A DNA stretch of 64,000 bases from positions 480,001 to 544,000 of the forward strand of contig CANJVR010000001.1 in assembly GCA_947478395.1 (NCBI GenBank). The letters run 5' to 3'. This DNA is from Opitutia bacterium. GTDB lineage: Bacteria > Verrucomicrobiota > Verrucomicrobiia > Opitutales > Opitutaceae. The position numbers were made by a program, and so were the translations under genes. Positions within the stretch are counted from its first letter, which is position 1; each line of letters starts with the position of its first letter. The notes under the pieces are model-generated. The model ran no database searches. It worked only from the letters and a program-made list of their open reading frames with translations, and was not told the DNA's origin. Shown here piece by piece: positions 47,440-57,430 of this stretch.

Positions 47440-47638
47440 CGCGCAGGGACGGCGCGGCGGCTGGACGCCAGTTAAAGCGCCTCGAATTGAAAGCCGGCTT
47501 TTCCCCGGCGGCGGCATCCTCCCGGCTCTTACAGTTGCGGCGGATGCGGACGCCGTTGAGGTCGCCATCGACGCGAAACGATAAGACCGCCTTCCGGTAC
47601 TTAAACCGGCTGACCGCAAACCTAGGTTAGAGGAGCAT
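47440..47638 (-). pseudogene. Decayed N-terminal fragment of a tyrosine integrase homologous to 56029-57276
   Basis: MLL*PRFAVSRFKYRKAVLSFRVDGDLNGVRIRRNCKSREDAAA aligns by eye to FTVTRFLNRNGVTSWRVDGRLHGLRIRRNFKTREEAGA; stop at codon 4 and a later frameshift. Confidence 0.8.
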
Positions 47639-47701
47639 GCTTAGGTTACCGCGCCAACTGGGCAACCTAGCTTCGGATCTTATCCCCTCGGCGGCGAAAA
47701 A

Positions 47702-47726
47702 TGGCGGAGAGGGAGGGATTCGAACC
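47702..47726 (-). repeat. att site: 25-bp duplication of the tRNA-Ser 3' end
   Basis: TGGCGGAGAGGGAGGGATTCGAACC is identical at 47702-47726 and 57341-57365. Confidence 0.95.
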
Positions 47727-47892
47727 TGAATCTCCGCTGCCAGCTAAGTTCCGGATTAACGCGGACTTAGTTGATGGTTAGTGGTTTAGAACGTGAAGAG
47801 AGAAGCAGATAAATGCGGAAAAGTGAAGGCAAAAACAGCGGATTGGACAACCTTTTGGCAACCTGATCGGTGGCAATTTACGCGGCTGTTGG

Positions 47893-48312
47893 TCACGTGT
47901 TCGCGACGCGATACGTTGGCTTGAAAAAGCCCACTGCACCTTTGCATTCGCGGAAGGGCAAAGGGCGGGCGTCTTCCAATACCCACCCCCACGGGGAGGT
48001 GTCTTTCCAGACCGAGCCATGCCGCCGCACGCAGGCCGTGATCGTGGCGACGCCGACGATGCCGCCGATGTCGTGCTCAAGCGGGATTTTGCGCCCGGCC
48101 CACGCGTTCCACTGCGTCCAGTCTTCTTCGTCGATGGCGGGGAACGTGGACGAGGCGTGGATGAGCACGCGTTTGGGCAACGTGACGAGGCGATAGGAGC
48201 GGTTTTCGATGTCCTTGATGCCTTGGGCAATCAGCCACGCCCACGGCTGGCGCACACTGAGGGCCATCAGGGATTTTTTGTCGTCGTTCCAGGTCGCGGT
48301 GCGGGAGTTCAT
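47893..48312 (-). CDS. ASCH domain protein
   Basis: ALSVRQPWAWLIAQGIKDIENR (GxKxxExR), LIHAS, GGIVG, KGAVGFF. Confidence 0.88.
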   Translation of the reverse strand: MNSRTATWNDDKKSLMALSVRQPWAWLIAQGIKDIENRSYRLVTLPKRVLIHASSTFPAIDEEDWTQWNAWAGRKIPLEHDIGGIVGVATITACVRRHGSVWKDTSPWGWVLEDARPLPFRECKGAVGFFKPTYRVANT

Positions 48313-48404
48313 GAGTTGTTGGAGATGGTGCCGACTTCGATCATATGGTCGGATCCAACGATATGATCGTCCGCGCTAACGGTCGATGTGAAGCAGGCAT
48401 GGTT

Positions 48405-51071
48405 CTACACCTTCGCCGCCGAATCCGTCCAGGCGTAGCCGTTGACCGGAAGCCCCACCGCCGCGAAGTGCTTCTTGCCGCACGCGATTTTCTGCCGCTC
48501 GTCCGCGTCGAGTTCTTCCAAGCGGGTCGCTCCTTTGGTTTCGCGCACGAGATAAAGGCGCGGCGGCTCGCCGGGCACTTCCTTCACAATCGCCCAGTCC
48601 GGATTGTAGGTGCCGACCGGCGTCTCCACTTGGAACCACCAGGGCAACTTCACAAAAAGCTTCACGTCCTGCCGCGCTTCCAGATCTTGCGCGAATTTGC
48701 GCTCCACTTCGGAATCGCACTCCACGCCGTCGTATAAACCGGCGCGGGGCGTCGTTTGCACGCGCGCGAGGTAGGGCTCCAGCTCCTTGTCGCGGAACCA
48801 CATCATTTCCCACGCGGCATCCGTGCCGCCGAGGCGCTCGTATTGCACGCCTTCAACCAGCAGGGCGCGTTTCTTCATCTCGATTTCGGAGGCGGCGATT
48901 TCGATCAGCCGTTGGGGATTGATCGCTGCCTCGTGGAGTCGGCCGCTCTCGCGCAAGATGGCGGCGAGCGTGGTGCGGGTGAGTTCGGTGCGGCGTTGCA
49001 GCTCGGTGAGGAAATCCGGCAGCGCCACCGGTGCCGCCACGCGGCCCGCGTCGTAAGTGCTGTGCACTTCCTCCACGACACCGTCGCGCGTGGGCTGGAT
49101 GGCCGCGCTCGCCACCGTGATGCGCCCGGCCTCGATCGTCTCGGGCCGCGCCCGAATTGCCGCCGCCGCCTCGGTTATAAGGCGCGGCGTCGCGTAGGTG
49201 ACGGCGTAGCGGGTGCGGTGTTTGATGCGCTCCCACAGGGCGAGAAACTCCGGGTCGGCGTCCCAGCCTTTGCGCAGTTTTAGCTTTTTGCGCTTCCGGG
49301 CGTTGTTGATGAGTCGCGCGTTGAAACGCACCCCGGCGTCCTCGAACTCGGCTTGCAGGCCGCGCGCGAAATCCTCGAAGGCTTCGCTCGCGATGAGCGT
49401 GAGCCGGTTGAGCGCGGCGTCGTGGCAACGCGTGCCGTCCTCGCGCACCGGCAGGCGCAGGCCGCGGCCGATGGTCTGGCGGCGTTCGCGCTCGGTGCCC
49501 ATCTCGCGCAGGGAGCAAATTTGAAACACGTTGGGGTTGTCCCAGCCTTCGCGCAGCGCCGAGTGGCTGAAGATGAACCGCACCGGCTCCTCCGCCGAGA
49601 GCAGGCGCTCTTTGCCGCGCATGATGAGCGCGAAAGCCTCGTCGTCGGCCTGCGTGCTTTTCTCCTTCGAGTCCACCGCTTGGCCCGCGCGTTCGGCGAA
49701 GTAGCCTTTATGCACCTGTGCCACTGGCGGCAGCGCGAGCGTGGAAAACTCCGGCGACACGCGCAGCGCCTCGTATTCGGCCTCGAACCACACGCGCACC
49801 TTGCCCTCCGCTTCCGCGTAGTGGGCCACGCGGTCGAGGAAGAAGAGCGACAACACTTTCATGCGCTGGCCGGCCGGGAGCTTCGCGATGGCCAGTTCCT
49901 TTTCAAAATGCCGGCGAATGGTCTGCCGCACTTGCACGCGCTGGATCGCGTCGTCGAGCGCGCCGCTGCCTTCGCCGAGGCCGAGGGAAAACTGGCCGAG
50001 GTCGATACGTTCGCGCCCCGGTTGGGCGTCGATGCCACGCACGAGCAGGCCGGCGTAGAGGGCGCGGTTGGCCTTGGCGGCGAGGTCGTCGCCGTGCTTC
50101 ACCGTCACGTCCTTGCGCTCGATGCCCTTCGCCGTCTGCACGTCGAGTTCCAGCTTGGCGGTGATGCCGCGCGCGCCGGGGATCGCTTTCTTGAACCGCA
50201 CGTAGGGTCGGTTGAAATCCCCCTCTTCGCGCACGCTGTCCACCTCGATGGCTTTCACGAGGCGCAGCTCGAAGGCGCGCACCGGGTCGAGTTGGTAAAC
50301 CAGATTGTAGGCGTATTTGTGGGTGGCGGAGTAGCGCAGCGTGCAGAGCGGATCGAGGCTGGCGATGGCGGCGCGGGCGCCTTCGCTTTCCAGATTCTGC
50401 GGCTCATCAAGGACGACCACGGGACGCGCCGCTTGCAGGAACTCGATGGGGCGTTGGCCGCCGAGGCGGTCGTGCGGGTTGTTGAGGATGTTCGACGCCT
50501 TGTCGAAGGCCTGGATGTTGAGCACCAGAATCTGCAGGCCGGGGCTGGTGTGAAAATGCCGGAGGCGGGAGACCTGCGCCGAATCGTAAACCCACGCCTC
50601 CAGCGGCGCGTTGTCGTAGAGCGCGCGGAAGTGATCCCGCATGAGGTCGATGCTCGTCATCACGCCTTCGCGGATGGCCACGCTGGGCACGACGACGATG
50701 AACTTGCGCCAACCGTAGCGGGCGTGGAGTTCGAGGATGGTGCGCAGGTAAACGTAGGTTTTGCCCGTGCCGGTCTCCATCTCGACCGAGAAGTGCGACC
50801 CGGCCCACGGTGTCTCGGCCAGTTCGGCGCGAGCCGTGTCGGCATGGGTGGCGAAGGTGCGGGCCTGCACCGCGCGGAGGTTGGCCTCCAGCCGAGTGGT
50901 ATCGAGATCGAGCCGGTTGCCCGCGCCCAGCTCGGTGATGAGTTGATCAACCGCTGCCAGCGGCTGCGCCTCAAACGCCCCGCCCGCCGGGCGCTGGCCG
51001 TCGAAGAGCTCGACCACGGCGCGGATGGCGTCGGCTTGGAAGGCTTGCGAGGGGTCGAACTGGATTTTCAT
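48405..51071 (-). CDS. res: Type III restriction enzyme Res subunit
   Basis: EMETGTGKT, LDEPQ, LRYSATH, FIFSHSALREGWDNPNVFQIC, QTIGRGLR, nuclease YNPDW...ETKG; start overlaps the RhuM stop (ATGA). Confidence 0.93.
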   Translation of the reverse strand: MKIQFDPSQAFQADAIRAVVELFDGQRPAGGAFEAQPLAAVDQLITELGAGNRLDLDTTRLEANLRAVQARTFATHADTARAELAETPWAGSHFSVEMETGTGKTYVYLRTILELHARYGWRKFIVVVPSVAIREGVMTSIDLMRDHFRALYDNAPLEAWVYDSAQVSRLRHFHTSPGLQILVLNIQAFDKASNILNNPHDRLGGQRPIEFLQAARPVVVLDEPQNLESEGARAAIASLDPLCTLRYSATHKYAYNLVYQLDPVRAFELRLVKAIEVDSVREEGDFNRPYVRFKKAIPGARGITAKLELDVQTAKGIERKDVTVKHGDDLAAKANRALYAGLLVRGIDAQPGRERIDLGQFSLGLGEGSGALDDAIQRVQVRQTIRRHFEKELAIAKLPAGQRMKVLSLFFLDRVAHYAEAEGKVRVWFEAEYEALRVSPEFSTLALPPVAQVHKGYFAERAGQAVDSKEKSTQADDEAFALIMRGKERLLSAEEPVRFIFSHSALREGWDNPNVFQICSLREMGTERERRQTIGRGLRLPVREDGTRCHDAALNRLTLIASEAFEDFARGLQAEFEDAGVRFNARLINNARKRKKLKLRKGWDADPEFLALWERIKHRTRYAVTYATPRLITEAAAAIRARPETIEAGRITVASAAIQPTRDGVVEEVHSTYDAGRVAAPVALPDFLTELQRRTELTRTTLAAILRESGRLHEAAINPQRLIEIAASEIEMKKRALLVEGVQYERLGGTDAAWEMMWFRDKELEPYLARVQTTPRAGLYDGVECDSEVERKFAQDLEARQDVKLFVKLPWWFQVETPVGTYNPDWAIVKEVPGEPPRLYLVRETKGATRLEELDADERQKIACGKKHFAAVGLPVNGYAWTDSAAKV

Positions 51072-52126
51072 GCGGCGGGGTCTTCGTCGGGCTTGCCGGG
51101 TTTCTTGGGCGGCAAGCGCTCGGCCTTCTTCAAGCGGCGCACGTGCTCCTCGAAATCTTTTTCCACCGGCGTCAATTCCGCCCCCGCAGCAAGCTGGCGC
51201 TGGCGGTATTTCTGCCACTCCCGTGCGGCCAGTTCTTGCGCGAGCTGGGCCGAAACCTTGCCGAGCCCGGGAAGGATGTCGCGGTCGTTGACCGTGAGGA
51301 AGGCATCGAGCTTCCGGTTCCAGTCCGCCATGCGCATGGTCTTCTTCGACATGGCTTGGAGTTCGCCGAAATCGATGAACTGCGAGACGAGGCGCTCCAG
51401 GATTTCCAGCTCCTCCTTGGTGAGGTAGTTTTTGGCCACGCCCACGTCTTCACGACGCGGTTTGGGGCCCTTCCACGTCATCAGCCCGGCGTAGGGTTTT
51501 TCGGCGCTGACGCGCTCGGCGATCAACTCGGCGGCGGTGTGCCCGTGCGTCGCCCAGTGGAGCTTGTTTTGCACGCGGGCGAAGAAGTGATCCGCCTCGG
51601 CCGTCTTACGGTCGTAGTCCACGCTGGTGGAAAACAGATCGAGCACCTTTTGATAAAACACCCGCTCTTCGAGCCGGATCGCCCGGATGCGCCGGAGCAA
51701 CTCCTCGAAGTAAGGGTTGCCCTGCTTCATGCGTTCATCGTCCAAGGCAAACCCCTTGAGGATATACTCGCGCAGGGTCTTGGTCGCCCAGATGCGGAAC
51801 TGCGTGCCGCGCGGCGACTTTACCCGGTAGCCCACCGAGATGATGACATCGAGGTTGTAGAACTCGATCTTGCGCAGCACCTCGCGCCCGCCCTCGGTTT
51901 GAACTGTTGCAAATTCTGCAACAGTTCCCGCCTGCTCCAACTCCTTCTCTTCGTAAACATTACTGATGTGGCGGGAGATCACAGACTTATCACGGTCAAA
52001 CAACTCCGCCAGCTGGTTAAGGCTCAGCCACACCGTGTCGCCTTGGAGAACGACATCCACCTTCACCGCGCCGTCTTCGGAGCGGTAAAAAATGATTTGG
52101 GATTCGGGGGGCGGTTGGTCGGGCAT
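51068..52126 (-). CDS. RhuM family protein
   Basis: VWLSLNQLAELF, YNLDVIISVGYRVKS, FRIWATKTL, VQNKLHWATHGHTAAELI, AKNYL. Confidence 0.9.
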   Translation of the reverse strand: MPDQPPPESQIIFYRSEDGAVKVDVVLQGDTVWLSLNQLAELFDRDKSVISRHISNVYEEKELEQAGTVAEFATVQTEGGREVLRKIEFYNLDVIISVGYRVKSPRGTQFRIWATKTLREYILKGFALDDERMKQGNPYFEELLRRIRAIRLEERVFYQKVLDLFSTSVDYDRKTAEADHFFARVQNKLHWATHGHTAAELIAERVSAEKPYAGLMTWKGPKPRREDVGVAKNYLTKEELEILERLVSQFIDFGELQAMSKKTMRMADWNRKLDAFLTVNDRDILPGLGKVSAQLAQELAAREWQKYRQRQLAAGAELTPVEKDFEEHVRRLKKAERLPPKKPGKPDEDPAA

Positions 52127-52138
52127 GGTGGCGAGCGC

Positions 52139-54040
52139 TTACACCGTTTGGAACTGGATGCCGTGGCTTTTCATTTCGAGCACGGTGTTCGTCTTGAGCT
52201 CGTCGTTGCCGTGGAAACCCACGTCGAGGCAGAGCACGCGCTTGGGCGCGAGGGCGATGACGCCGCGCAAGCCTTCGCGGGTGAGCGTGCGGCCGAGGCA
52301 GATGACGAGTGCGCCCGCCGCGAGCAGGTGAACGGGCTGACCCGCCACGGTGCGCACCTCCACCGGCGAGCCGAGGGTGATGCCGGGGTGGCCGCACTTG
52401 AGGAGGATCTCCGCGAGGAGGTCTTCATCGCTGCGGCCGTCGTGGACGTTGTGGGCCATGAGTTCGAGCTGCCGGGCGAGCCCCTCGCCGTCGCGCGGCG
52501 CGGCCTCGCCGTCCCACACTTTGAAGTTGGACTCGTCGAGACGGTAGGCACGAAAACCCTCGGCGCGGGTGCCGCCGGTGGCGAGGTCGGCCTGGCGGCG
52601 TGCGATCACCCGGCGCACGCGCTCGCGGGTGATGTCGGCGATGGTCGGGAAATCGGTGCGCCCGGTTTTTTCGGGGAGCTGCACGAGGATGAATTTGCGG
52701 TCGCCGCCGTCCTGGCGGTTCAGCTCCAAAACGGCCTGCGCCGTCGTGCCGCTGCCGCCGAAGAAATCGAGGATCAGGTCGTCGGGTTTGCCGAGCTGAA
52801 GCAAAGTTTGAAGTAGCGCCACAGGCTTTGGCGCTTGGAACAGACCCGGCTTCACCAAATCATCGAAAACTGCCTGACCCTTCTCGGTGTGGAAGTCTCG
52901 GTCGATGAAAATGGTTTTAAGCTTTTTGCGCACGACTTCTCCATCGGCGTTAACTGGTCTTGCTTTGCGATATACCTTCCATCGCCCGTTTACCTGCCGA
53001 GCGTAAAGGTCGGCGCTTTCGGATTTCACTTTTGGCTCACCCCATGTCCAGCAACCTTCAAACCCGTCTTCCCACTTGGGCCAAATTTCAATGGGAGTTT
53101 CACTGCTGTGCTCTAACGAAACTTTGCCCGTGCTGGGGTTCGCGAAAATAGCATACCAAAGTTTGCGACGATTATGTCGGCCAAACTGACGATGCGTATT
53201 GCGCAATTCTAGAGAGCGGAAGGCTCCCTTCTCGTCGAACTCATCGAACTCATCGCGGATTTGATCGGCTGATTTCTCCACTCCTAAATCCTCTTCGAGA
53301 TACCCCTTGGAATATATGAGAACTAAATCATGGGTTCGTGCGAAATGAGGATCCAGGACACGACCTTTGGGGTTGGTTTGAACCGTTACCTGCGCCACGA
53401 AATTCTCCTCCCCGAACACCTCGTCCATGAGCAGGCGGAGGTTGTGGACCTCGTGGTCGTCGATGGAGACGAAGATGACGCCGTCGTCGCGCAGGAGATT
53501 GCGGGCGAGGGCGAGGCGCGGGTGCATGAGCTTCAGCCAATCGCTGTGGTAGCGGCCGCTGGTCTCGGCATTGGTCGAGAGCGTTTGCCCGGTGATTTCT
53601 TTGTAGTGGGCCACGCCGGCGCGGAAATCGTCGGGGTAAACGAAGTCGTTACCGGTGTTATACGGCGGGTCGATGTAGATGAGTTTCACCGCGCCGGCGT
53701 AGGCCGACTGGAGCAGTTTGAGGACGTGCAGGTTGTCGCCCTCGATGATGAGGTTTTCCGTCGCATCCCACGCGACCGAGGCGGCGGCATCGGGTCGCAA
53801 GGTGCCGTGACTGGGGGCGAGCGTCTCGCGCAGGGCCTCGGCGCGACCGGCGTAGGAGAGCCCGTAGCGTTCGGGCGAGGACGATACGGCGGCGGCGCCA
53901 ACCAGCTCGGCGAGGCGGGCGGGCACGAGTTTACCCTCGGCAAAAGCGCCGGGCAGAAGCTCGCGAAGACGAGCGAGGCGCTCGGCGGCGAGATCGGGTG
54001 AAGTGAGGGGCAGGCGCGCGGGCTTGGCAGAGTCACTCAT
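52139..54040 (-). CDS. mod: Type III R-M Mod subunit (amino-methyltransferase, probably N6-adenine)
   Basis: IEGDNL, IYIDPPYNTG, PKPV, LDFFGGSGTTA in beta-class order; upstream of res. Confidence 0.93.
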   Translation of the reverse strand: MSDSAKPARLPLTSPDLAAERLARLRELLPGAFAEGKLVPARLAELVGAAAVSSSPERYGLSYAGRAEALRETLAPSHGTLRPDAAASVAWDATENLIIEGDNLHVLKLLQSAYAGAVKLIYIDPPYNTGNDFVYPDDFRAGVAHYKEITGQTLSTNAETSGRYHSDWLKLMHPRLALARNLLRDDGVIFVSIDDHEVHNLRLLMDEVFGEENFVAQVTVQTNPKGRVLDPHFARTHDLVLIYSKGYLEEDLGVEKSADQIRDEFDEFDEKGAFRSLELRNTHRQFGRHNRRKLWYAIFANPSTGKVSLEHSSETPIEIWPKWEDGFEGCWTWGEPKVKSESADLYARQVNGRWKVYRKARPVNADGEVVRKKLKTIFIDRDFHTEKGQAVFDDLVKPGLFQAPKPVALLQTLLQLGKPDDLILDFFGGSGTTAQAVLELNRQDGGDRKFILVQLPEKTGRTDFPTIADITRERVRRVIARRQADLATGGTRAEGFRAYRLDESNFKVWDGEAAPRDGEGLARQLELMAHNVHDGRSDEDLLAEILLKCGHPGITLGSPVEVRTVAGQPVHLLAAGALVICLGRTLTREGLRGVIALAPKRVLCLDVGFHGNDELKTNTVLEMKSHGIQFQTV

Positions 54041-54144
54041 TTGTAAAAGCCGATAAAACAGACGGATGACCGAGGCCGTCAACGCTGCGCGCGGGCGAAT
54101 TTGCCGATGCATCAAAACGCGCGTGAATGGCGGTCGTTGCATCG

Positions 54145-54950
54145 CGCCGGGGGCTAGGCCCGGCGCAAGGCCGGAGCGGGAGCGCAGGCCGGGCGCTTCG
54201 CGACGGCGGCGGAGATCCGCGCTAGCGGGTCGGAGACGACGCCGCGAGGCGTAGGGGCAACCCCGACTAAGTCGGGGGCGCAGCCGCGACGTGTCGAGGC
54301 GGAGTGCCGGGGCGCGGGGGGCGGAGGAAGCGCCTTTTCACGCCGGAACGGTCGGCGTCGGCTCGGAGCGCAGCTCTTAGGCGTAGCGGAGAGGCGACGG
54401 CGTCCGTGGAGGCGTTTCGATCAGGACGTGGAATGTGGGTGACCGCGCGCAGCGCCGCCCCGGCCTGACCGGGGCGAGCGCGCGGGCACCGCGAGAGCCG
54501 GGCCATGCGGACCCGGCCGTAGGTCGCGCCAGCGACCGGAGCCGCAGGCCGAGACGTGAGCGCAGCGAACGCGAGCGGGCACGCCGACCCGCCGCCACGG
54601 CGCAGAGCGTGAGCGAACGCCGTGGTTTGCGCGGCGGTTGAGGCGAGCCCGGTAGCCTGCCGGGCGCAGCGGGGTCCCCGCCGGTCTGAACAGGACGGGC
54701 GCGACTCAGGCGTCGGGAGCGTAGCGGACGACGGCTGTGACGCGACGGCGCGGGCCCACGGAGCGCCGCTTCGCGCGGGCCACTGCACCGCGCAGGCCGT
54801 CCCCGGCGGGGTTGCACTCCAGAGGACGGAGCGGCTTGGCCCGGAGCGCGCGAGCGCGGAGGGCTGGGCGGGCCGGAGGCGCGACCACCGCGGAGGAGCA
54901 AGCAGACGGCGTGACAGGCCGGAGGCTCGGCGCAGGGCTGGCGCGACGTG
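54145..54950 (+). other. Non-coding, hairpin-dense region with strand-biased GCG(C/T)AGC mini-hairpins (putative single-strand origin/primosome site or structured RNA)
   Basis: Seven GCGYAGC on + strand in 54278-54725 and many adjacent stem-loops; overlapping ORFs are low-complexity R/A/P/G. Confidence 0.55.
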
Positions 54951-54999
54951 TGCCGCTTGGTTGATTGGGCGGTTTTTCGCGGGCGATTTCGACTCGCCG

Positions 55000-55195
55000 A
55001 ATACCACCGCGTGTCCCACCGGAATACCACCCGGTATCCCGTCCCCTAGCACCTGGGACACGAACCCGGGTGCTAGACCGGGACATATCCCGGGATCTAT
55101 TCTTCTAAAGAAGAAGGGGGAGAGCATCGCTATCGCTCTCCCCACTTCTTTCGGCGGGACAGACAAACCGCGCGGCGTCGAGGTCGGTGTCCCAG
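55000..55195 (+). repeat. Origin-like module 1: GGGAYA/TRTCCC repeats + 21-bp core + hairpin
   Basis: Core CTATTCTTCTAAAGAAGAAGG at 55097-55117; repeats at 55011, 55034, 55055, 55080, 55085, 55187. Confidence 0.8.
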
Positions 55196-55233
55196 GCGGC
55201 GGCATGGCGTGGGTTGCGCCGTGTGCGCGCCCG

Positions 55234-55380
55234 GAGTCACCTGACACTAAGCGTCACTTTTGCCGAGGTGACGCTAAGGGCGACACTAGCGACTGACACT
55301 ATTCTTCTAAAGAAGAAGGGAGCGAGCTACGCTATCGCTCGCCTCCCTTCTTTCGACGGGACGGAGCCGAGCCGCGCGCG
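55234..55380 (+). repeat. Origin-like module 2: YGACRCT repeats + 21-bp core + hairpin
   Basis: Core at 55299-55319; repeats at 55242, 55250 (inverted), 55269, 55281, 55294. Confidence 0.8.
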
Positions 55381-55816
55381 TCGTGCGGAGTGGTTGGCTA
55401 CGTTGTGGCGCGAGGTGGCGCGGCGCGACGTGGTTGGCCTTGGGTAACCCACGAAGGACGGCGAGGCGGCGTGGGTGACGAAACGAGGTAGGGCGCAAAC
55501 TGCACCTGTCTTCACCTGCTTGCATCTAGCTACTCAATAGCGTTTTGCGGGCGATTTAAGCCGTCGATTTCGAGGCGGGCGGCGTTGCGGCAACCATGTA
55601 TCCCCTGCCTCCTTTGCGTGGCGTAAAACGAACGCGCGGGCCATTGGGCGCGATTCTGGAAGCCGGGTTGCGGGCGCGATTCGTTGCGTCGGTTTGAGGG
55701 TTGGGTGGCAGGCGTCGCGGTGCACCACGGCGGGTGCGTGGTGGGGTTTGCGCGGTGTGTGCGACGGGACGCGGCATGGGGGCGGCGTGGCCTGGCTGGG
55801 TCATGAACCACGGCGG

Positions 55817-56022
55817 CGCGCGCGGCTTTTCCGTTTGCCCGTCGAAAGAAGGTGGGGGAGGAGCAAAGCGATCTCCTCCCCACCTTCTTCTTTAGAAGAA
55901 TAGCACCAGGTGCTGCACCAGTCTTAGCACCACCCCCATTTCACTGGTGCTTAGAACTGGGGTGGTGCCGGGAAAAACCACCTCGGCGCCACCCTGGTGC
56001 TCGCGGTGGTGCCGGGTGGCGC
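55817..56022 (-). repeat. Origin-like module 3 (inverted): TGGTGC/GCACCA repeats + 21-bp core + hairpin
   Basis: Reverse-complement core at 55883-55903; repeats at 55903, 55915, 55927, 55945, 55963, 55995, 56007. Confidence 0.8.
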
Positions 56023-56028
56023 GGGAGG

Positions 56029-57276
56029 TCACGCCGCCCGCGAAAGCGGCGCGGTTTCGGCAGAGCGGTCACACGTGACCGGATCGACGTGGGCGGCTGC
56101 GGGTTGGACGTGCATGGCGGGCGCGGTCGAGGCGGGGACGATGTTGAAAAACGCCTCGGCTTCGGCGGGCGTTTTTAGGTCGAGGTAGTGTTTGCGGATG
56201 ATCGACTCGGAGTTGCCCGCCTGGAGCGCGGCCTCGCCCATCGAACGATACTTGGCGACGTGCATCGAGATGAACGTGTGCCGCATGATGTCGTGCGAGA
56301 GCGTGAACTTTTCCGCGACGGCGGCGCGGGTGTGTTGCAGGTTGGCGGGGATGATCGGGAAGCGGTCGAGCGGGTAAGCGCGGAGCCACGCGGCGAGGTT
56401 GGGCTGGATGGTGACGGCGCGTTTCATGCGGACTTTCGAGACCTCGGGTTCGATGAGGATGACGCCGGTATCAAGGCGCACGTGTTCGGGGCGGAGTTTG
56501 AGGATCTCCCCCGTGCGCACGCAGGGGCGGATTCCTGCGAAGAGGGCGAGGGCGAAGAACGGCACGAGCGAGCCGCCGTCGATCTGTTCAACGTGGTGCA
56601 TGAGTGCGGTGGCTTGCGCGGCGCTGAGCGTGGTCGCGGAGCCGCGCCGGTGGGCGATGCGGAGGTGGGGGACTTTTTCGAGGGGGTTGGCGGCGACCCA
56701 GTCTTGGCAGAACGCGAATTTGAAGAACGTGAAGAGCACGCCGCGACGGTTGTTAAACGTCTTGGGCTTCGGGTTGCCCAGCTGGCAATGCGCGGCAAGG
56801 GCTTCGCGGGAGAGCGTGGAGAGCGGCTGGCCGGGGAAGGCGGAGACGAGGTTTTCCAGGCGGATGCGGATGTCCTTGAGTTGGCAGGTGGAGAGCATGC
56901 CTTGCGCCTCCTCTTTTTTCTTGGACGCGAGATAAGCGGTGACGGCGGCATCGACGGTGATCTCGCGCTCGGGGGCGCGGTAGTTGGCGAGGGCGTAGTC
57001 GAGGTAGAACGCGAGGGGCTTGGGCGCGTCGGCGAGGCGGCGAAACGCGGCCTCGGATTGGCGGAGCTGGTCGTCGGTGAGGAAGGTGGAGGCGCTGCGG
57101 ACGTTGCTGGCGGCTTGCGCGGCCTTGGCTTCGAGGGCGGCGCGTTCGGCTCCGGCCTCCTCGCGGGTTTTGAAGTTCCGGCGGATGCGGAGGCCGTGAA
57201 GACGGCCATCGACTCGCCAAGAGGTGACGCCGTTGCGGTTGAGAAACCGGGTAACGGTGAATGCGGACTGCGGCAT
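56029..57276 (-). CDS. int: Tyrosine recombinase / site-specific integrase
   Basis: AGIRP (R), SKV (K), HDIMRHT (HxxR), KHY (Y); N-terminal arm-binding-like domain; next to the tRNA att. Confidence 0.9.
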   Translation of the reverse strand: MPQSAFTVTRFLNRNGVTSWRVDGRLHGLRIRRNFKTREEAGAERAALEAKAAQAASNVRSASTFLTDDQLRQSEAAFRRLADAPKPLAFYLDYALANYRAPEREITVDAAVTAYLASKKKEEAQGMLSTCQLKDIRIRLENLVSAFPGQPLSTLSREALAAHCQLGNPKPKTFNNRRGVLFTFFKFAFCQDWVAANPLEKVPHLRIAHRRGSATTLSAAQATALMHHVEQIDGGSLVPFFALALFAGIRPCVRTGEILKLRPEHVRLDTGVILIEPEVSKVRMKRAVTIQPNLAAWLRAYPLDRFPIIPANLQHTRAAVAEKFTLSHDIMRHTFISMHVAKYRSMGEAALQAGNSESIIRKHYLDLKTPAEAEAFFNIVPASTAPAMHVQPAAAHVDPVTCDRSAETAPLSRAA

Positions 57277-57315
57277 GTGTTAGGTTGCCACGTCAACTGG
57301 GCAACCTAGCGGGCG

Positions 57316-57339
57316 AAAACTCCTCGTCAGAGGAGAAAA
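57316..57339 (-). terminator. Short hairpin with T-run downstream of tRNA-Ser, supplied by the island
   Basis: Minus strand CTCCTC-TGAC-GAGGAG-TTTT. Confidence 0.5.
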
Positions 57340-57340
57340 C

Positions 57341-57430
57341 TGGCGGAGAGGGAGGGATTCGAACCCCCGGTGACCTTTCGGCCACACCTGATTTCGAGTC
57401 AGGCGCGTTAGACCACTCTGCCACCTCTCC
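57341..57430 (-). tRNA. tRNA-Ser (CGA)
   Basis: GGAGAGG...CCTGA-CT-CGA-AA-TCAGG anticodon arm, long variable arm, GGTTCGAATCC T-arm, encoded CCA; 90 nt. Confidence 0.97.

Follow-up and report, generated by a model that had tools for sequence, protein, structure and literature searches.

An integrative island of Opitutaceae without a replication gene carries three origin-like modules that match three types of primase-helicase

The window analysed here is a stretch of 64,000 nucleotides from a freshwater Opitutia bacterium of the Opitutaceae (contig CANJVR010000001.1, positions 480,001 to 544,000). It contains a 9.7-kb island, from 47696 to 57365, that is integrated at tRNA-Ser(CGA) and flanked by 31-bp direct repeats of the tRNA 3' end (Table 1); integration of this kind, by an integrase acting at a tRNA-type att site and with direct repeats at the ends, is a trait of PICI/SaPI-type elements. 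The large ORFs of the island are the integrase and the restriction-modification cargo, and shadow ORFs that overlap the three modules described below were assigned to no family. Searches of the island and of the 3.3-Mb genome for a primase-helicase, an initiator, head genes, an excisionase or Mu-like tail genes found none, the single match being to a distant SF2 helicase on another contig. An AlpA/Stl-type regulator and a small terminase were also not found in the island (tblastn with xis and terS; Pfam on 10 ORFs of at least 60 aa), and of the PICMI core genes int alone is present, without alpA or prim, the target being tRNA-Ser and not fis. A contig from a public run (X3, perhaps the window's own source) covers 51836-57001 with zero differences, and the triple set of modules is therefore not a misassembly. 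In this run the depth of the island contig equals that of the flank (38.8 and 40.3), and no circular junction, excised circle or amplification was seen among the joints listed for the contigs, as is expected without a helper; this result is uninformative.

Table 1. Features of the island and its integration site, in window coordinates
Feature	Position	Strand	Match or remark
att direct repeat, 31 bp, far end of island	47696..47726	-	30/31 match with tRNA-Ser 3' end
Cargo, ASCH-domain protein	47893..48312	-	PF04266 E 0.0015, weaker than curated cutoff
Cargo, type III restriction enzyme Res	48405..51218	-	REase_III E 1.8e-255
Cargo, RhuM-family protein (PDC-S05)	51068..52126	-	
Cargo, type III methyltransferase Mod	52139..54037	-	MTase_III E 1.8e-160
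Segment of ~70 bp resembling DNA directly upstream of helper terS; edge of conserved island core	54073..54145	-	
GC-rich non-coding region with strand-biased GCGNAGC mini-hairpin motifs, common to other mobile elements of the family	54140..54990	.	
Module 1 repeat array, GGGAYA class, RKS-type helpers	54997..55096	+	87% over 195 nt to G051 element origin
Core 1, 21 bp, 67% A+T, internal 7-bp inverted repeat	55097..55117	+	
Hairpin and tail 1	55111..55175	+	
Module 2 repeat array, TGACAC class, RRP-type helpers	55237..55298	+	88% over 150 nt to G038 element origin
Core 2	55299..55319	+	
Hairpin and tail 2	55313..55380	+	
Non-coding spacer, homologous to DNA downstream of L029 and L027 origins	55381..55812	.	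70% over 200 nt to L029
Hairpin and tail 3, nearest L029, L027 and L043	55813..55889	-	
Core 3	55883..55903	-	
Module 3 repeat array, TGGTGC class, RQP-type helpers; directly after integrase stop codon	55904..56022	-	
Tyrosine integrase	56029..57276	-	phrog_1 E 3e-21
tRNA-Ser(CGA), integration target	57341..57430	-	att core 57335-57365

The three modules are built on the 21-bp core CTATTCTTCTAAAGAAGAAGG, which occurs twice on the forward strand and once inverted. Shuffled sequences gave a mean of 0.01 matches to this core and three copies in 0 of 100 shuffles, and a search of the whole 3.3-Mb genome that allowed up to four mismatches found no further copy. After each core come a hairpin, CTTCTTTCGRCGGG and a CCGCGCG tail; the hairpins fold as DNA with -19 to -20 kcal/mol (z -2.8 to -4.5, both strands). 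The repeats that precede the core differ by module: GGGAYA (5 copies) occurs exclusively in module 1, YGACRCT (5 copies) exclusively in module 2 and TGGTGC (7 copies) exclusively in module 3, each count being reached in 0 of 2000 shuffles. In modules 2 and 3 the core is preceded by three direct copies, which begin at distances of 5, 17-18 and 29-30 bp, and by an inverted partner at 47-49; repeats of both orientations are confined to one flank of the core, and the hairpin occupies the other. The original prediction, made from the letters of the window, had described this identical core with one inverted copy, the hairpin, CTTCTTTCGRCGGG and tail behind it, and a separate repeat family for each module, and all of this was confirmed. 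Among Rfam families, the tRNA alone reached the threshold.

The core was found in 4 of 200 genomes of the family, always in mobile elements, and the possibility, raised together with the original prediction, that it is a common intergenic chromosomal repeat unlinked to mobile elements was therefore rejected. A gapped pattern located a true module at 11 of 24 loci from the genome collection, 4 of 5 viral loci and 14 of 15 metagenome loci; the remaining matches (13 of 24, 1 of 5 and 1 of 15) were dropped as chance matches in A+T-rich DNA. Chance was also assigned to the exact 21-mer matches in viral contigs, all three of which lie inside ORFs without repeats or hairpin. Outside the family, an order-wide pattern search gave merely one-mismatch matches, at about the level of a reversed-pattern control; annotated phages gave no match, and the plasmid matches (61 short Ralstonia matches) all fell on a 40-nt GC-rich spacer and not on a module. 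Named records that carry the module are from Verrucomicrobiota, including Rariglobus (Opitutaceae), with the exception of a 4-kb contig in a Sandaracinus bin, the module of which is equal to that of a helper and which is probably misbinned.

Single modules occupy a constant position, filling the gap between the gene of a 668-aa primase-helicase and that of a RusA-like resolvase. The module lies directly after the primase-helicase stop codon in 27 of 27 distinct pairs, a pair being a distinct combination of C-terminus and downstream DNA; 6 pairs were reached through a protein search and not through the core pattern, and the cores have at most two mismatches in 24 pairs and in 3 are a variant that was added to the pattern after being seen. 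The upstream side of two single modules (L027 and L057) is cut by contig ends. Single modules near initiator or primase-helicase genes had been anticipated, and the proposal of three origins of different protein specificity that lack a cognate gene is supported by the absence of a primase-helicase from both island and genome.

The elements that carry the single modules, referred to here as helpers, are integrated elements of ~20 kb with head genes, in which tail genes were not found. Their gene set comprises integrase, excisionase, Sak4, exonuclease, SF2 helicase, DUF3102, terS, terL and Mu-like portal, protease and capsid, and head and terminase genes (capsid, portal, protease, terminases) in the apparent absence of tail genes are a cf-PICI-type trait. 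Of 87 ORFs listed beyond the capsid gene in nine copies, 66 entered the tail scan, after removal of duplicates, shadow frames, capsid genes, ORFs already scanned and those outside a copy. These ORFs are mostly defence and cargo genes; one gave a tail-class match, to part of a profile, and has what we take to be a metallo-beta-lactamase fold, and a Mu-like prophage used as a control gave clear tail matches. No match to a connector-class or head-tail adaptor protein was obtained in the helper ORFs scanned, and four small family-less ORFs follow the capsid gene, one of which may encode a divergent adaptor. Judged by their genes, the helpers resemble capsid-forming satellites without a recognisable adaptor. 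Elements of this family integrate in tandem at tRNA genes. In one of them (L014, 16079-18416), two adjacent ORFs of 385 and 402 aa after the excisionase belong to no Pfam, PHROG or NCBIfam family, the longer having many unnamed relatives in phages and bacteria. One genome (G298) contains five head-only elements with at least three origin types, a sixth that lacks head genes, and two Mu-like prophages with tails and a related capsid protein (46-48% identity); tail borrowing and origin incompatibility could be studied there in a natural setting.

The helper primase-helicase is a single polypeptide in which a RepB'-like primase is joined to a helicase resembling RSF1010 RepA and, at the C-terminus, to a winged-helix-like domain. 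RSF1010 RepA was the best PDB match of the ATPase part by sequence (E 1.1e-5) and was matched by fold as well, and the middle part is RepB_primase-like by language-model features (0.93), with a match to PrimPol AEP at E 0.03. The last 80 residues were modelled as three helices and a beta hairpin; fold matches of this domain are weak, many of them to winged-helix domains (Z 5.3 at best), and Foldseek gave no match under E 0.001. We propose, from sequence comparison, that this domain reads the repeats, as iterons, type by type. One helper copy (L141/L049) lacks ~27 residues of the domain and represents either a defective initiator or an assembly slip.

The repeat class agrees with a three-residue signature in the third helix of this C-terminal domain in 27 of 27 pairs, with one signature per class: RKS for GGGAYA (n = 6) and GGTATT (n = 5), RRP for TGACAC (n = 6), RQP for TGGTGC (n = 5) and TGGTTC (n = 4), and RHP for TGGCGC (n = 1), classes being labelled from the top hexamers with the protein known to the labeller, and many of the 27 rows being close kin. 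The predicted link between repeat type and putative DNA-binding domain is thus seen, and the repeat families have an associated, putatively trans-acting partner in the C-terminal domain of the primase-helicase. On trees of 17 rows, which leave out L141, rows without the ATPase start and identical bodies, 5 class changes (the minimum) are needed on the C-terminal tree vs 8 on the helicase-body tree, and GGGAYA and TGACAC each occur on both sides of a well-supported split in the helicase body. Among 11 elements, identity of the C-terminal domain is 0.85 within classes and 0.60 between them, with a between-class maximum of 0.87, whereas in 12 other genes or domains the between-class identity reaches 0.89-1.00; only the C-terminal domain separates the classes. 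As this domain is physically adjacent to the repeats, part of the co-variation is linkage. It should be noted, however, that the hairpin type, 20 bp from the repeats, exchanges between repeat classes, and proximity alone is therefore insufficient to explain the link between repeats and C-terminal domain. When the island modules were compared with helpers, module 1 scored 0.83 with the RKS type against 0.23, module 2 scored 0.77 with the RRP type against 0.63, and module 3 scored 0.68 with the RQP type against 0.61, a narrow assignment.

The same three modules are present in three sister islands (L048, which is the same DNA as L025 and was counted once, L060 and L068) at tRNA-Ser(CGA) or (GGA). 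At the position of the window's cargo, L048 and L068 have other DNA and L060 ends; the sister islands end at the equivalents of 54088-54094, and two further runs, from other studies, contain 54088-57366 without cargo or host flanks. The sisters differ in genus (the G128 island is from another genus), tRNA site and cargo, the integrase being the sole gene conserved across the family. All four islands keep the same module order and orientation, and their cores differ by 1 substitution in 189 positions (the search itself required one core per island) vs 88 in 659 (13%) integrase four-fold sites. Between islands the repeat arrays diverge by 2-25%, with concerted change where the divergence is large: module 1 of L068 has switched to the GGTATT subtype, as in helpers L056, L058 and L066, and its module 3 leans towards TGGCGC, such that the core is kept with other repeat subtypes that again match known helpers. 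Pairing in the hairpin is kept through two-sided changes at 4 pairs, a comparison in which related sequences inflate the controls. A further island (L065), with a distant integrase at tmRNA, has two opposed modules and is cut by the contig end. On the integrase tree the sister to the four islands is L029 (support 99), in which the order is integrase, a helicase with the C-terminal domain and without the primase part, origin and the island's spacer, a spacer that has no strong match within helper elements. L029 would be the best model for the island's ancestor, if the direction of change is as we infer. In L068, tblastn with C-terminal domains gave weak matches that fall within the cargo gene and are regarded as chance. 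A triple island and a helper were never found together in one genome: the window's genome (G000) has no helper, and G128 is not among the 27 genomes positive in the corresponding search.

Three segments near the island's edges deserve mention. A 70%-identical remnant of the integrase 5' region lies directly outside the far att repeat (47506-47726), left by an earlier and now degraded tandem insertion of an element of this family. Directly inside this repeat, 47742-47864 recurs at the far ends of helper elements and probably represents integrase arm sites. The ~70-bp segment at the edge of the conserved core was confined, among the loci compared, to islands and to sites 10-273 bp upstream of terS in helpers (79-81% identity), with no match in the five head-only copies of G298; it is a candidate packaging or late-control site, a packaging role being a guess.

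Based on these results, the island is probably a variant of the non-autonomous satellite with an unusual mechanism, and its modules are real, non-random and conserved. We consider it probable, with appreciable doubt, that primase-helicases from helpers of three types replicate it in trans. The steps that we infer, from binding and firing to excision and packaging, would be the following. Each module would be a complete replication origin from integrated, head-encoding, apparently tailless phage-like elements of Opitutaceae, in which the repeats recruit the cognate protein through its C-terminal domain and the A+T-rich constant core and the hairpin form the melting and priming site for the common helicase and primase domains, the core melting and the hairpin strand being primed. 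An ancestor like L029, with integrase, helicase and origin, would have lost the helicase gene, and the island would now carry origins with three different specificities. Once a helper of one of these types is induced or enters, its protein would fire the matching origin, and the island, probably copied by whichever helper variant enters the cell, would be amplified after excision or in place and then probably packaged by the helper terminase and head. We tentatively extend this, at somewhat less than even chances, to a general scheme in which integrase-only satellites without replication genes collect and update origins for helper types while the helper is itself a tailless satellite of a Mu-like phage, forming a three-tier parasite chain in which specificity switching by helpers and origin collection by islands drive each other.

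Several other explanations could account for the triple array. The origins may act as decoys that titrate or misdirect the initiators of the three incoming types, a defence made of DNA only, without productive replication of the island. Iteron titration is a source of incompatibility, the restriction system shows that the island carries defence cargo, and all three common helper types are covered, with sister islands tracking helper subtypes. For titration, however, the repeats alone would suffice, yet the core and hairpin are best conserved; a single origin per type would titrate little; and an intact integrase, att sites and the segment resembling pre-terS DNA are kept in an island that moves between genera. 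We therefore regard a purely defensive role as unlikely. Tandem integration at tRNA genes, the decayed integrase directly outside the island and the location of module 3 at the expected ancestral origin position would also agree with modules that are functionless relics of deleted, tandemly integrated helpers. Such a history is highly improbable given that modules 1 and 2 match helpers across the intergenic origin only, without flanking coding DNA, that order and orientation are kept in four islands at 13% synonymous divergence with nearly invariant cores, and that the same opposed arrangement accompanies the distant tmRNA integrase of L065.

In helpers the module sits between two co-oriented genes, and the hairpin of module 1 is terminator-like on the reverse strand, as might be expected of a transcription control unit, with operator repeats and a terminator hairpin between early and late genes, through which the island senses helper proteins. 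This is very unlikely in our view: the 3 terminator-like sites compare with 1.2 +/- 1.1 in shuffles, no promoter-like site was found, no gene lies downstream of island modules 2 or 3, and the co-varying partner is a replicative primase-helicase and not a separate regulator. The identity of this partner also bears on conjugative oriT mimicry, to which we assign almost no probability, since no relaxase or conjugation family was found for the genes of the G038 element (two of its ORFs being family-less), even though a constant core with variable repeats, in three copies on both strands, recalls the staphylococcal oriT mimics as far as they are described in the excerpted report (PMC4652767). The original prediction had named the oriT-mimic layout as a parallel, and the constant core with subtype repeats stands; oriT function does not, no relaxase having been found, and the likeness is one of analogy only.

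The other parallel it had drawn, to lambdoid and plasmid origins, failed for the lambdoid type and held for a SaPI/IncQ-like layout, with the origin after the primase-helicase gene. Published systems are compared here as represented in excerpts of the cited papers. SaPI Reps read iterons downstream of their own gene via a C-terminal winged helix (PMC9371898), and the origins of SaPI/PICI Rep or Pri-Rep proteins resemble those described here in lying directly downstream of the (primase-)helicase gene and in their type-specific opposed short repeats (PMC9371898); a winged-helix-like C-terminal domain would read them here. Unlike the island, which has no Rep and three origin types, a SaPI encodes its own Rep (PMC9371898); the helper helicase also differs in being RecA-fold and RSF1010 RepA-like, and SaPI-type opposed iterons flank an AT-rich centre, whereas here the repeats are on one side and the hairpin on the other. 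IncQ plasmids (RSF1010) share iterons, unwinding and primase sites, a RepA-like helicase and a RepB'-like primase (PMC6925257), and their laboratory-evolved satellites have arisen by deletion, retain the origin and need the complete element (PMC6925257); these are, however, transient plasmids with a single origin and three separate proteins, whereas the island belongs to a natural lineage that is integrated, has three specificities and would use a single, fused protein of the helper. Staphylococcus aureus plasmids with oriT mimics of the pWBG749 family are likewise non-autonomous elements, which collect as many as three cis sites; these sites have the same core, differ in their repeats by subtype and do not all lie on one strand, and there too helper specificity switches independently of helper phylogeny (PMC4652767, PMC8136818). 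Those sites are transfer origins for relaxase and SmpO, whereas the island has replication-type origins tied to the primase-helicase of phage-like elements; by analogy, the best reading of the island is as a replication counterpart of the staphylococcal oriT mimics.

Satellites of other kinds share some of these traits. PICMI are small integrated islands with few genes, defence cargo and no capsid-remodelling gene in the excerpted description, but have AlpA and primase as core genes (PMC10803314); the island, which lacks the replication and regulator genes of PICI and PICMI, therefore lies outside both. The helpers resemble cf-PICI in integrase, primase-helicase, terminase, portal, protease and capsid, with tail genes not found (PMC10085698), and differ in having no detected head-tail adaptor or connector, Mu-like head genes and a Verrucomicrobiota host. 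Begomovirus DNA satellites are replicated in trans through resemblance of origin or iterons to those of the helper (PMC12193555, PMC10745424), but are plant ssDNA rolling-circle elements with one origin and unrelated proteins. Excerpts of two further reports describe integrase-plus-defence islands moved by a jumbo phage, where the excerpt contains no analysis of origins (PMC12595487), and a different satellite class (PMC12822802). Searches of the main texts of the open literature uncovered no description of a prokaryotic element that combines several replication origins, each specific to a helper. In the excerpts consulted, satellite families have a primase or replicase of their own among the core genes (PMC10085698, PMC10803314). 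Search tools model satellites with their own replicase, and if our reading is true, an island with borrowed origins would be invisible to those models; it would also suggest that some integrase-plus-defence islands without mobility genes may have cis-only replication, and would extend the oriT-mimic strategy from conjugation to vegetative replication. The three types would form a compact 3 x 3 system for how three recognition-helix residues set origin specificity, and escape from freeloaders would be a possible reason why such initiators diversify.

The region between the cargo and module 1 (54140-54990) is of separate interest. Its GCGNAGC mini-hairpin motifs are enriched about ten-fold and strand-biased, with no Rfam match, and 54040-56030 used as a query matched 100 of 400 family genomes, mostly via this GC-rich part, whose neighbours, inspected by eye, are often XRE-type HTH and CHC2-zinc-finger primase-like genes. 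The helpers have their own 1.5-kb GC-rich non-coding region before terS (L014 6880-8436 and equivalents; 80-97% identical between elements) with the same motif bias, and homology between it and the island region was rejected beyond the 70-bp end and one short patch. The island region is possibly a single-strand DNA structure element common to several mobile families. Finally, short opposed repeats around a small hairpin of the CTAAAG/CCTAAGG type were seen by eye downstream of distant AAA_25 helicases with 28-41% identity (L086, L088, L091, L104, L105, L106 and L109), and the origin layout of repeats and hairpin therefore appears to be widespread.
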